From contig CAZHYP010000002.1 of the NCBI GenBank assembly GCA_964536885.1, positions 1 to 33,654 of the forward strand: a stretch of DNA of 33,654 nt. The letters run 5' to 3'. This DNA comes from an uncultured Gammaproteobacteria bacterium (lineage in GTDB: Bacteria; Patescibacteriota; Patescibacteriia; Patescibacteriales; UBA12465). The notes beneath the pieces were generated by a model. It saw only the letters and a list, made by a program, of their open reading frames with translations, was not told where the DNA came from and did not search any database. Shown piece by piece: positions 25,278 through 33,363 of this stretch (within the stretch, counting starts at the first letter, position 1; each line of letters opens with the position of its first letter). A program made the position numbers and the translations under genes.

Positions 25278-25361
25278 GGGCGGATGGTGAAATTGGTAGA
25301 CACGCAAGCTTGAGGGGCTTGTGACCGCAAGGTCGTGGAGGTTCAAATCCTCTTTCGCCCA
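25278..25361 (+). tRNA. tRNA-Leu (anticodon GAG)
   Basis: Class II tRNA: acceptor GGGCGGA/TTCGCCC, anticodon stem-loop CAAGC-TTGAGGG-GCTTG, long variable arm, T-arm GGAGG-TTCAAAT-CCTCT. Confidence 0.85.
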
Positions 25362-25394
25362 CAAGCCTAAAATATGGCAGTATTCTGCCTTTAA

Positions 25395-25468
25395 GGGCGC
25401 ATAGCTCAGCTGGTTAGAGCACTTCGTTTACACCGAAGGGGTCCAGGGTTCGAATCCTTGTGCGCCCA
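25395..25468 (+). tRNA. tRNA-Val (anticodon TAC)
   Basis: Acceptor GGGCGCA/TGCGCCC, anticodon stem-loop CTTCG-TTTACAC-CGAAG, T-arm CAGGG-TTCGAAT-CCTTG. Confidence 0.9.
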
Positions 25469-25476
25469 CCCTAATA

Positions 25477-25503
25477 AAAAGCAACCCGTTTGGGTTGTTT
25501 TTT
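25477..25503 (+). repeat. direct repeat L = intrinsic terminator of tRNA-Val (AAAAGCAACCCGTTTGGGTTGTTTTTT)
   Basis: Hairpin CAACCC-GTTT-GGGTTG plus T6. Repeated with one mismatch at 29814-29841. Confidence 0.8.
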
Positions 25504-25559
25504 GTTATATTAAGAAATTTTTTTATTTAAGTTCAATAAATTATTGGGTTTTAGTGTAA

Positions 25560-25583
25560 CAAAAAATCCAGCAGTTGCTGGAT
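25560..25583 (-). terminator. intrinsic terminator of the M-R-ATPase operon
   Basis: Minus strand: AUCCAGCA/UGCUGGAU stem followed by U6. Lies 22 nt after the ATPase stop codon. Confidence 0.75.
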
Positions 25584-25604
25584 TATTGTGAATTTTTTGT
25601 TTAT

Positions 25605-27767
25605 CTAGAGACTCTTTATATCTGTATATAAGTTTTTTAGATGTTCATCTGACATGTCTAATAGAGGCTCATACATAAAAGAATTTAAGTGAATGTTTTC
25701 TGGTGTCATTAAATTAACCTGATCAAGTATTTTTATTTTTTCTTCTTCTGTGGTTCCATATTCCTGTTTAAATCTGTCAAATAACACGCGGGTCTGATAT
25801 TTAGCGATTGGTGTTTTATCTGATATTCTACTTAATATATATTTTTCAGCCTGCAATCTTATTGCCATTGATAATATTATTTTATTTTCTAGGTTTATTC
25901 CATTTGTTGCCGTCAAACAATCATCAGCTAATTCAAAAATTAGCTCTATTACTTTTTTTGTTTTATTTGTAAAATTTATCGTTAAATTTGGAAAATTTTG
26001 TTTATATATATCTTCTAAATCACCTTTTGTTATATCTTCCGACGTATCTTTTATGTGTAATACAGAAGTGAGTGTTAAAAAAGATGTGTCCGCTGCTCCT
26101 TTTGTATATTCTATAATATTTCTAACAAATGCTAATGAAGCTATAAACTTTTTGTCTTGGTCAAGATGCCCCATGAAATCCTCAAAAGGTTTAAAATGTT
26201 CAGCTCTTACAAGTTTTGTTTCATCCTTTGTTTTTTCAACCATTAAACAATGTCCATCTCTGGATATATTTAATCTCTCTTTTGCTGTTCTAAAAAAATC
26301 AAAATTATGTGTTAAAATTATGTGAAAAAAATGATCACTTTCTGTCATCTCTTTTAGGTATGCTATGATTGCATATTTATTTTGATAATCAAATGAATCG
26401 GCAATATCATCAATTATAAATAAGGTTTTTTGGTTATCCTTCATTCTGGCTTGTACTTCAAATATTATATTCAACAAGTATAAGGCTCTTTTTTCTCCGC
26501 CACTTAATATTTTTATTAATTCTTTTTGTTCAACTGGAGCTTCGTCTCCTCCATCATTTTCTTTAAATACAAAAGAAATAGTTGGCGTATCCGTCCCAAG
26601 TATGGCATCTTCTTGATTTTGTATCATTAATCTAAATGGAACAAAAAATCTTTTATTATATGTATCTATAACTCTTGCCCAATCAGTAGCCTCTAACTTC
26701 GCTTGTTTTATGATTTCATCAATATCCTTTTTACTTTCAGTGTATTTATTTAATAAATTTGTGTATAGTTCGGTGTTGCTTTTTAAATATGATATCCAAA
26801 GTTTTTGTCTAAAGCCGGCAATATTTTCTAATTCAGTAATAATTTTTTCATTTTCGATTAAGTATGTTCTAAAATTTCTTAACTCAGCATTTTTTATTAA
26901 AGCTTTTTCTATATCATTAAATGCTTTAACGAGTGCCGGGTTATTTAAAATTGATGTTTTTTCTTCTTCAATAACTTTTTCTAATTCTTCTTCTGATCCG
27001 ATTTGTTTGTCATCAGCATCTTTGCCATGTAAAAAAACTGAGTGTTCTGCAGCAAAAAAACCATTTTCTACAAGATTCTTTGCTATTGTGGACGCATTAT
27101 TATGATTAAAAACACCTTTTTTAAAGTATTGAGATGCTTCCACTAGCTCATTATATTTATTAATATAGTCTAAGAGCTTAGTTTTAAAATCTTTTGTTTC
27201 TAAAAAAGACAGAACTTTTTCATTAAAAATTTCTTTATATACTATATCTGAAAACAAAGGCACTGTTTTGTCGGTAACTCTTGGTTGAGTACTTTCAAGC
27301 GCCACTAAAAAAGATTCGGTGTTATGAATAAATGCATCAGATATTTCATTCTCTATTCCGCTCTTAAGTCCACTCAATTGTTTTAATTCTGTTATTAACT
27401 TATCTTTTTCTTTGTTTATTTCTTCGTGTATTAAATCGTACTTATCTTTAAGGGTTTTATTTACTAATAGTGTAGATAGCTTTTCTGATTTAAAGAATTC
27501 GTTGTATGAGTCTATTACAAAGACTTCACCTGGCAATAGGTTTTGTCCGTTTTCTTTTTTAATATCTCTTTTTGGTATTCTCGAGGGAAATATTCTGTCT
27601 TTAGAAAGAGCATTGTTCTCTAAATCAGAAAAAGTATTTGCGAATGATGTTTTCATTGCTCCATTTGGGGCATAAATTATAAAAGAATGTCCATCTGAAA
27701 AATCAAATGATGTTTCTAATTTTTTTATTCCGTAGCAATTTTCTAGTAATAAGTTTAATTTTTCCAT
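25605..27767 (-). CDS. PrrC/RloC-like (AAA_13-type) ABC ATPase with degenerate Walker A and an uncharacterised C-terminal domain
   Basis: 720 aa. Walker A-like YAPNGAMKTS (aa 32-41), about 380 aa of helical insertion, ABC signature LSGGEKRALYLL (421-432), Walker B/D-loop LFIIDDIADSFD (449-460), H-loop ILTHNFDFF (484-492), then about 220 aa of C-terminal domain. Confidence 0.6.
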   Translation of the reverse strand: MEKLNLLLENCYGIKKLETSFDFSDGHSFIIYAPNGAMKTSFANTFSDLENNALSKDRIFPSRIPKRDIKKENGQNLLPGEVFVIDSYNEFFKSEKLSTLLVNKTLKDKYDLIHEEINKEKDKLITELKQLSGLKSGIENEISDAFIHNTESFLVALESTQPRVTDKTVPLFSDIVYKEIFNEKVLSFLETKDFKTKLLDYINKYNELVEASQYFKKGVFNHNNASTIAKNLVENGFFAAEHSVFLHGKDADDKQIGSEEELEKVIEEEKTSILNNPALVKAFNDIEKALIKNAELRNFRTYLIENEKIITELENIAGFRQKLWISYLKSNTELYTNLLNKYTESKKDIDEIIKQAKLEATDWARVIDTYNKRFFVPFRLMIQNQEDAILGTDTPTISFVFKENDGGDEAPVEQKELIKILSGGEKRALYLLNIIFEVQARMKDNQKTLFIIDDIADSFDYQNKYAIIAYLKEMTESDHFFHIILTHNFDFFRTAKERLNISRDGHCLMVEKTKDETKLVRAEHFKPFEDFMGHLDQDKKFIASLAFVRNIIEYTKGAADTSFLTLTSVLHIKDTSEDITKGDLEDIYKQNFPNLTINFTNKTKKVIELIFELADDCLTATNGINLENKIILSMAIRLQAEKYILSRISDKTPIAKYQTRVLFDRFKQEYGTTEEEKIKILDQVNLMTPENIHLNSFMYEPLLDMSDEHLKNLYTDIKSL

Positions 27768-27768
27768 A

Positions 27769-28845
27769 TTATCTTATAAATCTTATCTGTAGATTTAATT
27801 TTATATATAATTCACCATTTTCTTGATAAATTTTACCAAAGCCATGTTTATGAGTGCCCCCTGTTTCGAATTTTGTATTTTTAAATAAATAATCTTGAAA
27901 AGAGTCCATATTATAGAGATGATAACAGACCACATCCCCATCTTCTTTTACTATTAAATACCCACCATGAGCTGTATTAAGCCCATCCCATTCTTTGCTG
28001 GGCATCATACCAAGAGCAACTGCACGCAAAAAAGTTTTTATTTTATATTCAAAATCACTTGCTGTTAAATCGTATTTATCTTTTAAATATTGGTTACTTG
28101 CAAGGAGTTCGCAAATTGTTTGTAAATTTGAACTCTCTCCTCTATAAAAACAATTTAAAGCTGTAGCAATTATTTCTGGAAATACTATATCTATTTTTCT
28201 TAGATTATTCTTGAATTTAGAATTTGCCATTGAGTAAAATGATAAGATTCCTCCAGATGCTTCAATTGCTTTAATTTTATCTACAACCTTTGACCCTCCG
28301 TCAATTTGGTTTATTTCAGTATAGTTACCAATAAAATTATTTATTTTATAAATGAAATTTGTGGCCCCAGAAGCATTTAAAAGTGTAGCTGGCGCCCCGA
28401 GCATAGATTTTATACTAAATCCCAGATCTACAATCATAGGAGAGCCACACTCTCTTACTTTTGCTGTTAAGTCTGCTTTATGGCTATTTCCAGCTTTTAT
28501 TTGTGAGCACCCTAATTCTGTCATTAATTCTTCTGCCAACGGAACAGAAAATGCGCCAGTAGATTCTTTTATTGTTTCAAATATTCTACTTATGCAAGAC
28601 TTAATTTTTGTTTGGTTTACAGCACCAATAATTGTTTTATCTAATTTTGTTATTTCAATATTTTCACCATTGAACTTATATAATTTTCCAGTCTGGCCAG
28701 GCTCTTCTCTTAGAACCCCGATAACAGGGTAATGTTTGTCATTTATTCTATTTAATTCTGAGTCAGCAAAAAAAAGCTTTCTTTCATCAAGAACTTTTAG
28801 AAAAGTATAAATCTCGCTCCATTCACCCTTATTACCCTTTATCAT
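27769..28845 (-). CDS. type II restriction endonuclease, probably HpaII family
   Basis: 358 aa. The N-terminus MIKGNKGEWSEIYTFLKVLDERKLFFAD resembles, from memory, the N-terminus of HpaII-family enzymes. Overlaps the upstream C5-MTase gene by 14 nt. Family call unverified. Confidence 0.5.
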   Translation of the reverse strand: MIKGNKGEWSEIYTFLKVLDERKLFFADSELNRINDKHYPVIGVLREEPGQTGKLYKFNGENIEITKLDKTIIGAVNQTKIKSCISRIFETIKESTGAFSVPLAEELMTELGCSQIKAGNSHKADLTAKVRECGSPMIVDLGFSIKSMLGAPATLLNASGATNFIYKINNFIGNYTEINQIDGGSKVVDKIKAIEASGGILSFYSMANSKFKNNLRKIDIVFPEIIATALNCFYRGESSNLQTICELLASNQYLKDKYDLTASDFEYKIKTFLRAVALGMMPSKEWDGLNTAHGGYLIVKEDGDVVCYHLYNMDSFQDYLFKNTKFETGGTHKHGFGKIYQENGELYIKLNLQIRFIR

Positions 28846-29722
28846 ATTTCTTTAAGGTGTTGATGATTTGTTTAGCGTAGGCTGTTATAGCCGGAACAGC
28901 AACGGCATTGCCTAGCTGTTTCATGGCTTGGGAGTTGGTAACAGGAAAAATATAGTCTTCTGGAAAGCCCATCATTCTTTTTCCCTCTGTTGGCATTAGT
29001 CTTTTTACTTCGCCATCCACTATGTATGAATCCCAATTATGTCTATCTCCTATTTTAGATCCTCGCCCACCAACTCTTAATGTATATCCTATCTTCTTTT
29101 CGCATTTCCCTTTGAAAATATCGTCCATAGTCTTTTTTAATTCTGTTGGTTCTGGAAATTCGAATTTAATATCTTTATCTTTGAAACCAACCATAAACAA
29201 ACGTGGTCTATGTTGTGGCACACCGAAATCTGAAGCTTTAACTATTTTGTAATAAAAAGAATAGCCAAGGTCTTTTTCTATAGTTTTTTTGATAGTGGCA
29301 AAAGTTTTCCCGTCATCATGGTTTAGTAAATGTCTGACATTTTCAAGAAAAAATGCTTTTGGTTTTTTTTCTTTTATAATGTCAGCTATGTGAAAAAACA
29401 AGTTTCCACGGTCATCTTTAAAGCCCTTTTTAAAGCCAGATTGACTAAATGGCTGACAAGGAAAGCCTCCGCAAATAACATCAAAATCAGGTATATCTTT
29501 AGGAATTACCTTAGTTATATCTCCAACAAATTTATCTTCTTTAAATATTTTTGGTGATTTTTTTTCGAAGTTAGCTTTATAGGTTTTTCTGGCTGATTCG
29601 TCCCATTCGGACACAAAAACACATTCAGCCCCAGCATCATCAAAGGCTAAATGAAAACCACCTATACCAGCAAATAAATCAATAAATTTATAGCTTTTCT
29701 TATTTTTTATGGTCTTTTTCAT
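28832..29722 (-). CDS. DNA (cytosine-5)-methyltransferase
   Basis: 296 aa with C5-MTase motifs in canonical order: I FIDLFAGIGGF, IV GGFPCQPFS, VI FLENV, VIII QHRPRLFMVGF, IX/X MGFPEDY...QLGNAVAVP. Compact target-recognition region. Confidence 0.9.
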   Translation of the reverse strand: MKKTIKNKKSYKFIDLFAGIGGFHLAFDDAGAECVFVSEWDESARKTYKANFEKKSPKIFKEDKFVGDITKVIPKDIPDFDVICGGFPCQPFSQSGFKKGFKDDRGNLFFHIADIIKEKKPKAFFLENVRHLLNHDDGKTFATIKKTIEKDLGYSFYYKIVKASDFGVPQHRPRLFMVGFKDKDIKFEFPEPTELKKTMDDIFKGKCEKKIGYTLRVGGRGSKIGDRHNWDSYIVDGEVKRLMPTEGKRMMGFPEDYIFPVTNSQAMKQLGNAVAVPAITAYAKQIINTLKKYDKG

Positions 29723-29813
29723 AATATTTTTTATAAAATTAGTATATCATTTTTTTTGTTTTATATCTATTTTCCTTCCACCTACATTTTTGTTGTGTTT
29801 TTCACCTTAAAAC

Positions 29814-29841
29814 AAAAGCACCCCGTTTGGGTTGTTTTTTT
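29814..29841 (+). repeat. direct repeat R (AAAAGCACCCCGTTTGGGTTGTTTTTTT), degenerate copy of the tRNA-Val terminator
   Basis: One A-to-C mismatch relative to 25477-25503, which weakens the stem. No upstream plus-strand gene that it could terminate. Confidence 0.8.
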
Positions 29842-29867: not shown

Positions 29868-30281
29868 ATGAAGGAATATATTACTCACAGTCCTGAAGAA
29901 ACAGCTGCTTTAGGAGAAAAAATTGGACAATCTTGCCAAGGAGGTGAGGTAATTTTGTTATTGGGTAATTTAGGGGCTGGTAAAACTTGTTTTACCCAAG
30001 GACTGGCAAAAGGTTTGGGCGTTAAAGGACCGGTAAATAGTCCAACTTTTAATTTAATGAAAGTTTATAAAATTAAAACTGGAGTATTGTGTCACATTGA
30101 TGCTTATCGCTTAGACTCCGGCAACGATTTAATTGCTATTGGGCTCGATGATTATTTAAAAAAGAAAGACGCCATTGTGGTTATTGAATGGGCAGAGCGT
30201 GTCAAAGATATTTGGCCAAAAAATAAAATCAAAATTGAATTTAAAAATTTTAAAGACGGACGTAAAATAAAAATATTTTAA
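29868..30281 (+). CDS. tsaE: tRNA threonylcarbamoyladenosine biosynthesis ATPase TsaE
   Basis: GNLGAGKTCFTQGLAKGLGV...VNSPTFNLMKVY...HIDAYRL...IEWAE. Start placed at ATG 29868, because the TTG at 29832 lies inside repeat R. Confidence 0.9.
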   Translation: MKEYITHSPEETAALGEKIGQSCQGGEVILLLGNLGAGKTCFTQGLAKGLGVKGPVNSPTFNLMKVYKIKTGVLCHIDAYRLDSGNDLIAIGLDDYLKKKDAIVVIEWAERVKDIWPKNKIKIEFKNFKDGRKIKIF

Positions 30282-31293: not shown

Positions 31294-31370
31294 GGAGTGG
31301 TAGCTCAGTTGGTTAGAGCGCCTGCCTGTCACGCAGGAGGTCGCGGGTTCGAGTCCCGTCCATTCCGCCA
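31294..31370 (+). tRNA. tRNA-Asp (anticodon GTC), CCA encoded
   Basis: Acceptor GGAGTGG/CCATTCC, anticodon stem-loop CCTGC-CTGTCAC-GCAGG, T-arm GCGGG-TTCGAGT-CCCGT, discriminator G plus CCA. Confidence 0.9.
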
Positions 31371-31406: not shown

Positions 31407-31458
31407 TTACCCCGTGGTATAATAAAAAGATAAACGAACTTTAAAAAAGGAGGGCAAC

Positions 31459-31953
31459 ATGAAAACACAATTGGACTCTTTTCTGAATAATTTCAGTGAC
31501 TGGCACAACGAAGAAGATAGAGTACGCATTTTTTCAGAAGATATAGAAAGACTCAAAAGCATGGATGATACAAAACGCCTAGATTTTCAGGACAAACTGA
31601 CACTGGCTATTTCAGATAGTATGTCTTATGTCAGAGAGTTTGCGATTGATCCGGTAACTTTAAACAGTTTAGTGTGCAATCATTTCTCTGCCTGTCCAGA
31701 CGGGGTTAGACAAGAATTGTTAAAAAGCATTTGCTTAACCGAAAATTTGGGCACTAATGAAAAAAATGAACGAATCAGAGGATTTGTTTGCGGAACTGTT
31801 TTTCCTGAAGTGGATAATTTTAAGACTCCAATCTTAAGAATTAATTCAGGTAACAGATCTCTTGCTGGAAGTCCGGTCAAAAACATGATCTTGGCAGCTA
31901 TGGAATCTAAAAAAGTAATTTTTTTGGATTATTTCGGACACCCAGTGTTATAA
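31459..31953 (+). CDS. hypothetical cytoplasmic protein, no recognisable family
   Basis: 164-aa ORF preceded by a strong SD (AAAGGAGGG, 4 nt before the ATG) and followed by a terminator. No TM helix or signal peptide. Confidence 0.45.
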   Translation: MKTQLDSFLNNFSDWHNEEDRVRIFSEDIERLKSMDDTKRLDFQDKLTLAISDSMSYVREFAIDPVTLNSLVCNHFSACPDGVRQELLKSICLTENLGTNEKNERIRGFVCGTVFPEVDNFKTPILRINSGNRSLAGSPVKNMILAAMESKKVIFLDYFGHPVL

Positions 31954-31962
31954 ACAAACCCG

Positions 31963-31986
31963 GCCAGTAGAAAATACTGGCTTTTT
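31963..31986 (+). terminator. intrinsic terminator
   Basis: GCCAGTA-GAAAA-TACTGGC followed by T5. Confidence 0.8.
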
Positions 31987-32020
31987 GTTTGACATTACGG
32001 TTAGCTTTGATAATATTAAA

Positions 32021-32127
32021 ATAGAGACTGTGAAGGACCACAAAAAGAGCCCTGCGATGATGCGTTCCATCTGGGTCAGTGATATCCTCTAATACACTCT
32101 CATGCCCATTCTTGAAATGGGCTTTTT
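32021..32127 (+). ncRNA. candidate small RNA or cis-acting leader (about 105 nt), family unknown
   Basis: Promoter TTGACA (31989-31994), 16-nt spacer, TAATAT (32011-32016). Terminator GCCCATT-CTTGA-AATGGGC plus T5 (32104-32127). No credible ORF in between. Confidence 0.35.
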
Positions 32128-32171
32128 CATACCCTCTTGACATAAATGTTAGAATAATATAACATAGAAAT

Positions 32172-32738
32172 ATGTTAATTAATTCTAACAAATTTATGAA
32201 TCAAAAAACTTATCAAACTTGGCGAATTATCATTGTCTTTGTGTTAGCGATGGTGTTTAGCCAATCAATTGTTCGTGGTGATTATATCATCCCCTTGGTA
32301 TCAATGACGGTTGCCTCTTTGTTGCTTTGGTATCTGCGTAGTCGAGTCAAAGGCATTTTAGCTGATGAACGTGACTATACTTTAGCCGGTAAAGCTGCCT
32401 TGCTGTCTATTCAGGTGTTTGGTTGGCTAGCTTCGATGGCCACTTTGTTTCTTTATTCCCAAAGAGCGGTTAATCCAATGTATGAACCAATTGGGCTTAC
32501 CCTTTCTTATTCCGTTTTGTTTTTATTTTTGGTTTACGGAATTACTTTTCGCTATTATAATAAATTTAAATTTGATAAGAAAAAATTATTTTTATTTTTA
32601 GCTTTTTTAGCAATATTTATTGTTGCTATTATTGGACTGAGACTTTTTTCTGGTGAAGATAATTGGGTGTGTCAAAACGGCGCTTGGCAAAAGCACGGAC
32701 AACCAGATTTTCCAGCACCAACTACTGAATGCAAATAA
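32172..32738 (+). CDS. DUF2178-like four-helix membrane protein
   Basis: 188 aa with four hydrophobic helices and a Cys-containing tail [25 protein letters not shown]. Immediately followed by a small XRE regulator, a pairing I recall for DUF2178. Alternative start at 32196. Confidence 0.4.
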
Positions 32739-32740
32739 TT

Positions 32741-32935
32741 ATGAAAAATAATATTAAAGAACTTCGAGCTAAATTAAATATTACTCAAGACGATCTTGCT
32801 CAACTAGCTGGCGTGCGACGAGAAACCATTGTTTTTTTGGAGCAAGGAAAATATAATCCGTCGCTTAATTTAGCGCACAGCGTAGCCAAAGCGCTGAAAA
32901 CCACTATTGATGATTTATTTGATTTTGAAGATTAA
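32741..32935 (+). CDS. XRE-family HTH transcriptional regulator (y4mF/YozG-like)
   Basis: [57 protein letters not shown]. Alternative start at 32729. Confidence 0.85.
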
Positions 32936-32960
32936 AAAAAGAAGCTCGAAAGAGCTTCTT

Positions 32961-33353
32961 TTAGTTTAGTATTTCTATCCAGCCGAGTTTAAGCCATAGC
33001 ATAATTTCGTTGTAACACTGAACTTCTGGGGCTGGCAGATGAGCAATTATTAATTTTATATTTTGACCACTAACTAATTTTTGGGCGAGACCAAAACCTA
33101 ATTCGGCAAAAGTTTCAGCTCCAATATAACCACTGACGCCATTTTTTTCTTCGTTAGCAATAAATAAAATATCAGCTCGAGTTATATCTTTAAAGAAACT
33201 GGTATGAACATTTGGATATAGCTTTTCAAAGTTTTCACTCGGTATTTGCTTGGGAAAATTTAAAACTTCGCAGTCAGGTTGATTGCTCCAATACTGAACC
33301 CACTGATTAATTTCCGTTTGTAATTTGGCACTACCAGCAATAACTATTTTCAT
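32961..33353 (-). CDS. nucleoside 2-deoxyribosyltransferase-like superfamily protein
   Basis: 130 aa. MKIVIAGS...ADILFIAN..KNGVSGYIGAETFAELGFGLA pattern recalls this Rossmann-like family. Weak call. Confidence 0.35.
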   Translation of the reverse strand: MKIVIAGSAKLQTEINQWVQYWSNQPDCEVLNFPKQIPSENFEKLYPNVHTSFFKDITRADILFIANEEKNGVSGYIGAETFAELGFGLAQKLVSGQNIKLIIAHLPAPEVQCYNEIMLWLKLGWIEILN

Positions 33354-33363
33354 TTGAGTAGAA

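Follow-up and report, generated by a model that had tools for sequence, protein, structure and literature searches.

How a small restriction-modification (R-M) operon came to lie between the tRNA-Val gene and tsaE, bracketed by two copies of one terminator, is the question raised by the DNA analyzed here, a stretch of 33,654 nucleotides (nt; 33.6 kb) of contig CAZHYP010000002.1 from an uncultured bacterium. The whole stretch is called the window, and all window coordinates refer to its full length. The insert (25504-29802; 4299 nt between the repeat copies) is an R-M-bearing island at a tRNA gene with flanking target repeats, which is a known class. Taken as a whole, its history is probably best explained as the insertion of a defence operon that brought along its own, foreign copy of the site and belonged to the cargo pool of integrase islands targeting tRNA-Val.

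A first-pass annotation of the locus had proposed that the tRNA-Val terminator is duplicated with one mismatch, and this was borne out: AAAAGCAACCCGTTTGGGTTGTTTTTT at 25477-25503 occurs again at 29814-29840 with 1 mismatch, and with up to 3 mismatches allowed the window has no match beyond these 2 (0.00 expected from 100 shuffles). The recurrence is thus real, while the 27 nt given as its unit fall short of the true unit of 38 nt, which starts inside tRNA-Val. In a gapped alignment the pair extends over 25467-25503 and 29803-29840 (37 and 38 nt; 34 matches, 3 mismatches and 1 single-base indel), and its 5' start, CACC, consists of the last acceptor-stem base, the discriminator A and the CC of tRNA-Val. 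On the plus strand, the left copy (25467..25503) comprises the CACC of the tRNA, the spacer CTAATAAAAAG, the hairpin CAACCCGTTTGGGTTG and a T-run, and the right copy (29803..29840) CACC, the spacer TTAAAACAAAAG, a weakened hairpin CACCCCGTTTGGGTTG and a T-run. The left copy folds with -19.3 kcal/mol (z -8.1) and is by prediction a strong intrinsic terminator of bidirectional appearance; the right copy, whose stem carries an A-to-C change, reaches -9.3 kcal/mol (z -1.5), in keeping with the earlier suggestion that the mismatch weakens the second stem.

Relatives with an empty site were found by way of TsaE protein homologues (70-91% identity) and the contigs encoding these. When GTDB representative genomes were searched with TsaE, the best match was 58% identical and non-syntenic, and the source lineage is therefore absent from the GTDB species representatives; exact-protein look-ups of the window TsaE and ATPase returned only contigs identical to the window. 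On the contigs L084-L087, L089, L090 and L091/L092 the order is SMC, cmk, rplS, tRNA-Leu, tRNA-Val, one terminator, tsaE, lspA and dksA, without an island and with tsaE starting ~60 nt past the tRNA, and the same island-free order is found on L093/L094/L099 and L102, which came from a terminator scan of metagenome contigs. Together the empty-site relatives represent five distinct related lineages (TsaE 85-91% identical where scored). In blastn comparisons of the terminator-scan set with the window, the left alignment ends at 25503 (25511 for L102) and the right alignment starts at 29803, the two overlapping on the relative by a single repeat copy (38 nt in L093 and L099, 45 nt in L102). Because the single copy of the relatives aligns to both window copies, the alignments identify the island as an insertion with duplication of a target segment, the ancestral order being tRNA-Val, single terminator, tsaE, and mark it as strain-specific and located exactly between tRNA-Val and tsaE. 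The first-pass annotation had anticipated this ancestral order and had recommended looking for the empty site in relatives; the single-copy sites in five lineages confirm it, and the existence of empty sites disposes of the alternative that all relatives carry the three genes natively.

The insert itself is a single three-gene defence operon, equipped with a conserved promoter block and a terminator of its own. The only genes between the repeats are three closely spaced ones on the minus strand: a C5 cytosine DNA methyltransferase (MTase) of 296 aa (28832..29722; Pfam DNA_methylase, E 1.7e-86; NCBIfam dcm; M.HhaI-like in a PDB sequence search), an HpaII-family type II restriction endonuclease (REase) of 358 aa (27769..28845; Pfam RE_HpaII, E 1.1e-107; PADLOC REase_II), whose gene overlaps that of the MTase by 14 nt, and an SMC/Rad50-like ABC ATPase of 720 aa (25605..27767; PADLOC PDC-S46, E 9.7e-266; weak Pfam SMC_N match). 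The promoter or leader block of the cassette (29723..29779) has sigma-70-like sites on the minus strand and is common to the related contigs L103 and L107/L108, and the putative intrinsic terminator of the operon, AATCCAGCAACTGCTGGATT followed by a T-run (25565..25584, minus strand), has its hairpin kept after the ATPase gene in L103 as well. The cassette ends read GTTATATTAAG... and ...CCTTCCACCTACAT, or, written differently, GTTATATTAAGAAATTTTTTTATTTAAGTTCAAT and ATATCTATTTTCCTTCCACCTACAT. Outside the cassette proper are a 13-nt left junction, GTTATATTAAGAA (25504..25516), and a 23-nt right junction, ACCTACATTTTTGTTGTGTTTTT (29780..29802), which has no assignment.

Upstream of the island, ARAGORN places tRNA-Leu(GAG) at 25278..25362, as a neighbour within the rplS-tRNA operon, and an intact tRNA-Val(TAC) at 25395..25470, both on the plus strand. 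Downstream, tsaE (29868..30281, plus strand; 137 aa) was assigned from Pfam TsaE, homologues and synteny; every close homologue has 137 aa and begins at the ATG at 29868, which makes the TTG at 29832 spurious, as had been suspected. Profile searches of the three island proteins gave no integrase or transposase domain, the L103 integrases used as tblastn queries found no homologue anywhere in the window, and no terminal inverted repeats were among the reported inverted pairs for the island. The gene content listed by the first-pass annotation (three minus-strand genes only) and its statement that integrase, transposase and inverted repeats are lacking thus both stand. An insertion sequence or transposon was rejected, since there are no terminal inverted repeats and no transposase and the duplication is 38 nt rather than short.

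The most informative relative for the origin of the cassette is L103, a more distant one (ATPase 80% identical at the amino acid level, TsaE 77%, core flank 72.6% at the nucleotide level) that carries the closest ATPase homologue on a long contig, where the ATPase adjoins tsaE. At the same site L103 has an 11-kb island with two tyrosine-integrase (Phage_integrase) genes. In window orientation, the island begins after the 3' half of tRNA-Val with ACAA and an element terminator, followed by the two integrase genes and three small genes, and continues with ATPase, REase, MTase, DUF3800, a 161-aa gene, an arm, the native terminator and tsaE. The arm (attR, the right attachment site) ends in a displaced tRNA-Val 3' fragment, GTTTCGAATCCTTGTGCGCCCACC, beyond which lies the native terminator, and the island is bracketed by the ~22-nt repeat of the tRNA end and by a 26-nt arm repeat. 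The copies of this direct repeat, TTTTGGACACAATATGGACACAG, found at L103:1222-1247, L103:11854-11879 and L107:1832-1857 (attachment arm), are probably integrase arm-binding sites. The L103 cassette matches window 25517-29773 with 75.3% nt identity, including the promoter block and the terminator. The protein identities are mosaic (window:27769-29722 vs L103:2796-4788), with 94% for the MTase, 80% for the ATPase and 55% for the REase at a TsaE identity of 77%, which suggests that the REase allele was replaced or is fast-diverging, and the MTase retained, between the window and L103.

Other contigs carry the cassette or traces of comparable events. On L107/L108 (MTase 92% identical), with different host neighbours, the cassette promoter directly abuts the same arm and displaced tRNA-Val fragment, and on L106 the MTase-REase pair is found without the ATPase at an unrelated locus next to the suf operon. 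L088, the closest relative of the window, has an 86-nt insert directly after tRNA-Val (L088:3023-3125), at whose borders 17 nt of the tRNA 3' end, AATCCTTGTGCGCCCAC, are directly repeated; inside are a terminator hairpin and a tRNA 3' half that has been deleted in part. The insert begins with the same CCCAC/ACAA junction as L103 and looks like the scar of an almost fully deleted integrase island. In L105 the tRNA-Val/tsaE interval is occupied, at L105:5611-5975, by a DUF378 gene (68 aa) that comes with a promoter-like site and a terminator; the site is empty in L090, the lineage sister to L105. From the L103 island, the L107/L108 cassette at the same arm, the L088 scar and the L105 module it follows that the tRNA-Val/tsaE interval is an integration hotspot, with the tRNA-Val 3' end as recurrent target. 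Five states of the interval are thereby seen in one clade: empty, scar, small module, integrase-less cassette and full integrase island. Scans of IMG/VR with the left-junction motif, the L103 arm repeat and an L103 integrase gave nothing relevant.

Two further observations were made on these contigs. L103 has a GC-rich imperfect hairpin of ~140 nt between the ATPase gene and the next gene (L103:7089-7230; minimum free energy ~ -69 kcal/mol, z ~ -6 on both strands), the outer end of which also occurs at L104:2748-2811 and which is absent from the window. Rfam searches of L103, L104 and L088 gave tRNAs only, the hairpin having no family match; a structured RNA and a palindromic remnant of a mobile element are both conceivable. 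In the window, ~2 kb past tRNA-Asp (31294-31370), namely 31410-33362, do not align to L093, L099 or L102, and homology resumes at ~33363. This second tRNA-adjacent variable region contains a DUF2178 membrane-protein gene and two open reading frames (ORFs) without a family match; no displaced tRNA-Asp fragment was found in it.

The two repeat copies of the window differ in their affinities. Between the window and L088 with its scar removed there are zero differences over 25335-25503, a tract running from the end of tRNA-Leu through the spacer and tRNA-Val to the end of the left copy; the last difference before it is at 25334, and rplS upstream differs every 15-60 nt. The left copy, CACCCTAATA, is the allele of L088 and L105 and does not differ from the L088 lineage's native copy; for its 5' part, CACCTTAAA, the right copy has the allele of L084, L090 and L093. 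The right copy with the tsaE leader is 85% identical to L088, and the whole right flank ~80-82%. The two copies therefore look like different alleles of the site, not like an in-situ duplication. Because the divergence of the right copy from the relatives matches that of the rest of the right flank, we infer that the right copy is the one resident at the site and that its left counterpart arrived with the island or its recombination tract.

Further hints come from the junctions. In L105 the terminator is directly followed by GTTATAGTAAGGA, to which the 13-nt left junction of the window is a match at the corresponding position. Over its first 27 nt the L105 module shows similarity to the int2 3' end of L103 (a score attained by 8 of 1000 shuffles; INYNF vs INSNF encoded). 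Direct comparison of the window left junction with the int2 3' end gives a weak likeness, not significant alone; the positional match to L105 is convincing. The left junction may be an integrase-gene remnant. On the other side, the promoter block is followed in the window by CCTTCC, with which the L107 arm also starts, and the sequence TTGTG-TTTTT-CACC loosely resembles the tRNA end TTGTG-CGCC-CACC, where a displaced fragment would lie. The 23 nt may be a decayed displaced tRNA fragment or attachment arm, a weak lead, given that 29774-29806 (29-nt right-junction linker plus CACC) was not significantly similar to the L107 attachment arm (1735 of 2000 shuffles scored as well).

On these grounds, recombination within or beside the segment made up of the tRNA-Val 3' end and the terminator would have admitted the island and left an attachment-site-like duplication. 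The incoming island would have brought a second, foreign copy of the L088-lineage allele, now the left copy, and the resident copy would have been displaced to the tsaE side, where it is now the right copy; arrival of a foreign copy is proposed because the left copy is the foreign L088-type allele and the right copy diverges like its flank. The cassette would have been drawn from the cargo pool of tyrosine-integrase islands that target tRNA-Val (L103, L107/L108), the window island being a reduced, integrase-less member of that pool. The joints may have been made by an island integrase since deleted or by host homologous or homology-facilitated recombination; the host route could have been a single crossover, a flanking-homology event or homology-facilitated illegitimate recombination. 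The left copy presumably still terminates the rplS-tRNA operon, and the right copy would be a weakened relic upstream of tsaE. The first-pass annotation had offered recombination at the terminator or duplication of it: recombination is favoured, and the allele-like copies speak against duplication in situ. The mechanism, which it had called unclear, is partly clarified by the presence of the same cassette in tRNA-Val tyrosine-integrase islands of relatives.

Several points weigh against this reading. The window has no integrase. It also has neither the junction of the left attachment site (attL) of the L103/L088 type (CCCAC/ACAA), nor the arm-type motif GGACACAATATGGACACAG, nor, with up to 4 mismatches allowed, a displaced 20-nt tRNA-Val 3' fragment anywhere outside the tRNA itself. 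Because that attL junction is absent, the integrase route needs an element variant with a terminator-like arm, for which L105 speaks, weakly, as the only case. The zero-difference tract is mostly tRNA, with ~65 nt free to vary, and L088 is also the closest relative of the window, so that shared ancestry together with constraint on a working terminator could account for part of the identity of the left copy to L088. Taken singly, the 13-nt and 23-nt junction remnants lack the length needed for statistical significance. Finally, the divergence of the cassette from L103 (75% nt) is near that of the hosts (72.6% nt) and is compatible with long residence.

R-M gene complexes were reportedly found inserted with long target duplication by Nobusato et al. 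in 2000, and an event of this kind is the alternative closest to the insertion with a foreign site copy preferred here. In it, 38 bp of resident target would have been duplicated in situ, with no recombinase-specific site, and the four differences between the copies would be later decay of a functionless right copy. All criteria listed by Furuta, Abe & Kobayashi (2010; PMC2853133), who also give examples, have their counterpart in the window: REase and MTase genes inside, an insert of <20 kb, a repeat of >30 bp, one copy in the empty genome and no mobility genes. The stem mismatch of the right copy fits relaxed selection, and the occurrence of the R-M pair without the ATPase at the unrelated L106 locus also agrees with it. 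We nevertheless regard such an event as unlikely, since at 34/38 the copies are less alike than the examples tabulated in PMC2853133 (44/46, 47/47) and their differences are allele-like, the left copy being exactly the L088 allele and the 5' part of the right copy that of L084/L090/L093; moreover, the same cassette lies inside integrase islands at the very same tRNA, and the left junction is shared with L105, which has different cargo. Improbable as well is an ancient vertical island, with an integrase island carrying the cassette at tRNA-Val already in the ancestor of the window and L103, precisely lost in most descendants and reduced by deletion in the window. The near-equal divergence of cassette and core flank (75.3% vs 72.6% nt) and the integration scar in the sister lineage L088 would suit it; it requires, however, at least 4-5 independent clean losses in lineages branching between the window and L103, and leaves aside the mosaic divergence of the cassette (MTase 94%, ATPase 80%, REase 55% vs TsaE 77%), the lack of an L103/L088-type attL junction in the window and the anomalous identity of the left copy to L088.

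That the hairpins are two coincidental copies of a common terminator or of a repetitive extragenic palindromic (REP)-like sequence beside three native genes is effectively refuted. A relaxed terminator pattern matched 10 loci on JGI metagenome contigs, with 1 copy per locus and no multi-copy contig; four of these loci are the same syntenic site, and because the remaining six are single hairpins in unrelated organisms (GC content 0.28-0.44), the repeat is not a multi-copy element. The near-identity of those six hairpins, AAAAACAACCC(A/G)TTTGGGTTGTTTTT, is what a generic element could appeal to, and convergence is possible. Against it stand the 2 copies in 33.6 kb vs 0 expected and the one copy on every other contig, the similarity that takes in the spacer and the tRNA end in addition to the hairpin, and the empty-site relatives, which align across both copies with a 38-nt overlap. 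Across the window and the metagenome contigs the repeat is not a genome-wide or REP-like element, a possibility that the first-pass annotation had raised. A speculative further idea, to which we give very little credence, is that the tRNA-Val terminator hairpin and the left-end motif (a T-run, then GTTATAnTAAG) form an integrase-independent docking site for swapped cargo modules, operating through recombination at the hairpin-containing 38-nt segment. Its candidate cargoes so far are the R-M and PDC-S46 operon of the window and the DUF378 gene of L105; if true, Patescibacteria-like genomes would have a system of cassette exchange that is neither an integron nor a classical tRNA island.

Base composition sets the island apart modestly. 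Its GC content is 0.298, that of the window outside it 0.349. The ATPase gene is low (0.282, z -2.25) and has the lowest third-position GC (GC3) of 37 ORFs (z ~ -1.9), the REase gene has 0.312 (z -1.3) and the MTase gene a host-like 0.340, while the host gene lspA, at 0.272, is below every island gene. The description of the island as markedly more AT-rich than its flanks is thus apt for the ATPase and REase genes and fails for the MTase gene, with lspA lower still. The outlier on the high side is an ORF at window:13807-14325 (GC 0.434, GC3 0.462, z ~ +3).

As regards function, the strong family matches mark the R-M pair as presumably of HpaII type, with CCGG as the presumed specificity. By family membership, the MTase would shield the host's own sites, presumably CCGG (HpaII cut site), and the HpaII-family REase would cleave unmodified incoming DNA. 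The window shows no avoidance of CCGG (54 sites observed vs 50.7 expected), which gives no clue to the residence time of the R-M system. On L104, whose ATPase is 83% identical, a gene for a Vsr very-short-patch repair endonuclease lies between the REase and ATPase genes (L104:151-513), which fits a methyltransferase generating 5-methylcytosine (5mC). The window ATPase matches the profile of PDC-S46, which PADLOC lists as a candidate defence family consisting of a single gene, over residues 1-720 (positions 1-718 of 719). Its AlphaFold (AF2) model (pLDDT 82.5) has an SMC/Rad50-type head, a helical insertion and a helical C-terminal domain (~residues 530-720), and Foldseek returned SMC, Rad50 and retron Ec83 ATPase chains with TM-scores of just 0.2-0.3. 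Full-length homologues, 42-63% identical, occur in many phyla and on plasmids as a solitary gene among nuclease and toxin genes. Because homologues elsewhere stand alone, the PDC-S46 ATPase is by all appearances an independent module that is linked here to an R-M pair, and by its family it would act as an independent candidate defence gene. In the searchable literature PDC-S46 came up in no paper, nor did a demonstrated defence activity of that family; its linkage to an HpaII-type R-M system makes it a candidate worth testing.

The locus documents a natural case of defence-gene movement in a poorly sampled small-genome lineage, which probably belongs to the Patescibacteria/CPR, going by named homologues and the low GC content. 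It introduces no new principle and leaves the current understanding of island formation unchanged; its place is best seen by comparison with known systems. With SMC-like defence ATPases (the retron Ec83 ATPase chain, Lamassu LmuB and PARIS AriA) the window ATPase shares the SMC/Rad50-type head with helical insertion of its model, and with PDC-S46 a full-length match and homologues amid nuclease and toxin genes on plasmids. It differs from the solved members in its TM-scores of 0.2-0.3 to them and in the lack of a partner nuclease gene in the island.

Islands that target tRNA genes have an integrase gene at one end and a direct repeat made of the tRNA 3' portion, typically at least 15 nt, which leaves a displaced fragment. 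Like these tyrosine-integrase islands, the window island lies directly 3' of an intact tRNA, has flanking direct repeats and has relatives in which the site is empty; the complete form, loaded with the same cargo, is seen in L103 and L107, and a scar of such an element in L088. Unlike them, it has no integrase and no canonical L103-type attL junction, and its repeat covers 4 nt of the tRNA and otherwise the downstream terminator: a displaced tRNA 3' fragment is present in L103 (~22 nt), L088 (17 nt) and L107, whereas the overlap in the window is CACC only. Units of R-M genes plus an integrase that enter tRNA 3' ends by means of a tyrosine recombinase are discussed in PMC2853133.

Homology-facilitated illegitimate recombination and the import of islands by flanking homology during natural transformation are treated in PMC3240628. 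The likeness lies in the 169-nt tract that is identical to another lineage and ends at the window island, so that this side resembles a homologous import, and in the other junction, which has CACC microhomology only; a 38-nt duplication like that of the window is not an outcome that defines this pathway.

R-M insertions with long target duplication (PMC2853133) resemble the window in the small insert with REase and MTase genes and no mobility gene, in the direct repeat of >30 bp vs a single copy in the empty-site genome, and in an insert GC content below that of the host. The window departs from them in that its repeat starts in the tRNA 3' end and its copies are allele-like, in that a third, non-R-M defence gene accompanies the pair, and in that relatives carry the same cassette within integrase islands at this tRNA. 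The R-M and ATPase cassette thus occurs both as integrase-island cargo and as a bare repeat-flanked insert, which links the long-target-duplication class of R-M insertions to decayed or recombined tRNA islands.

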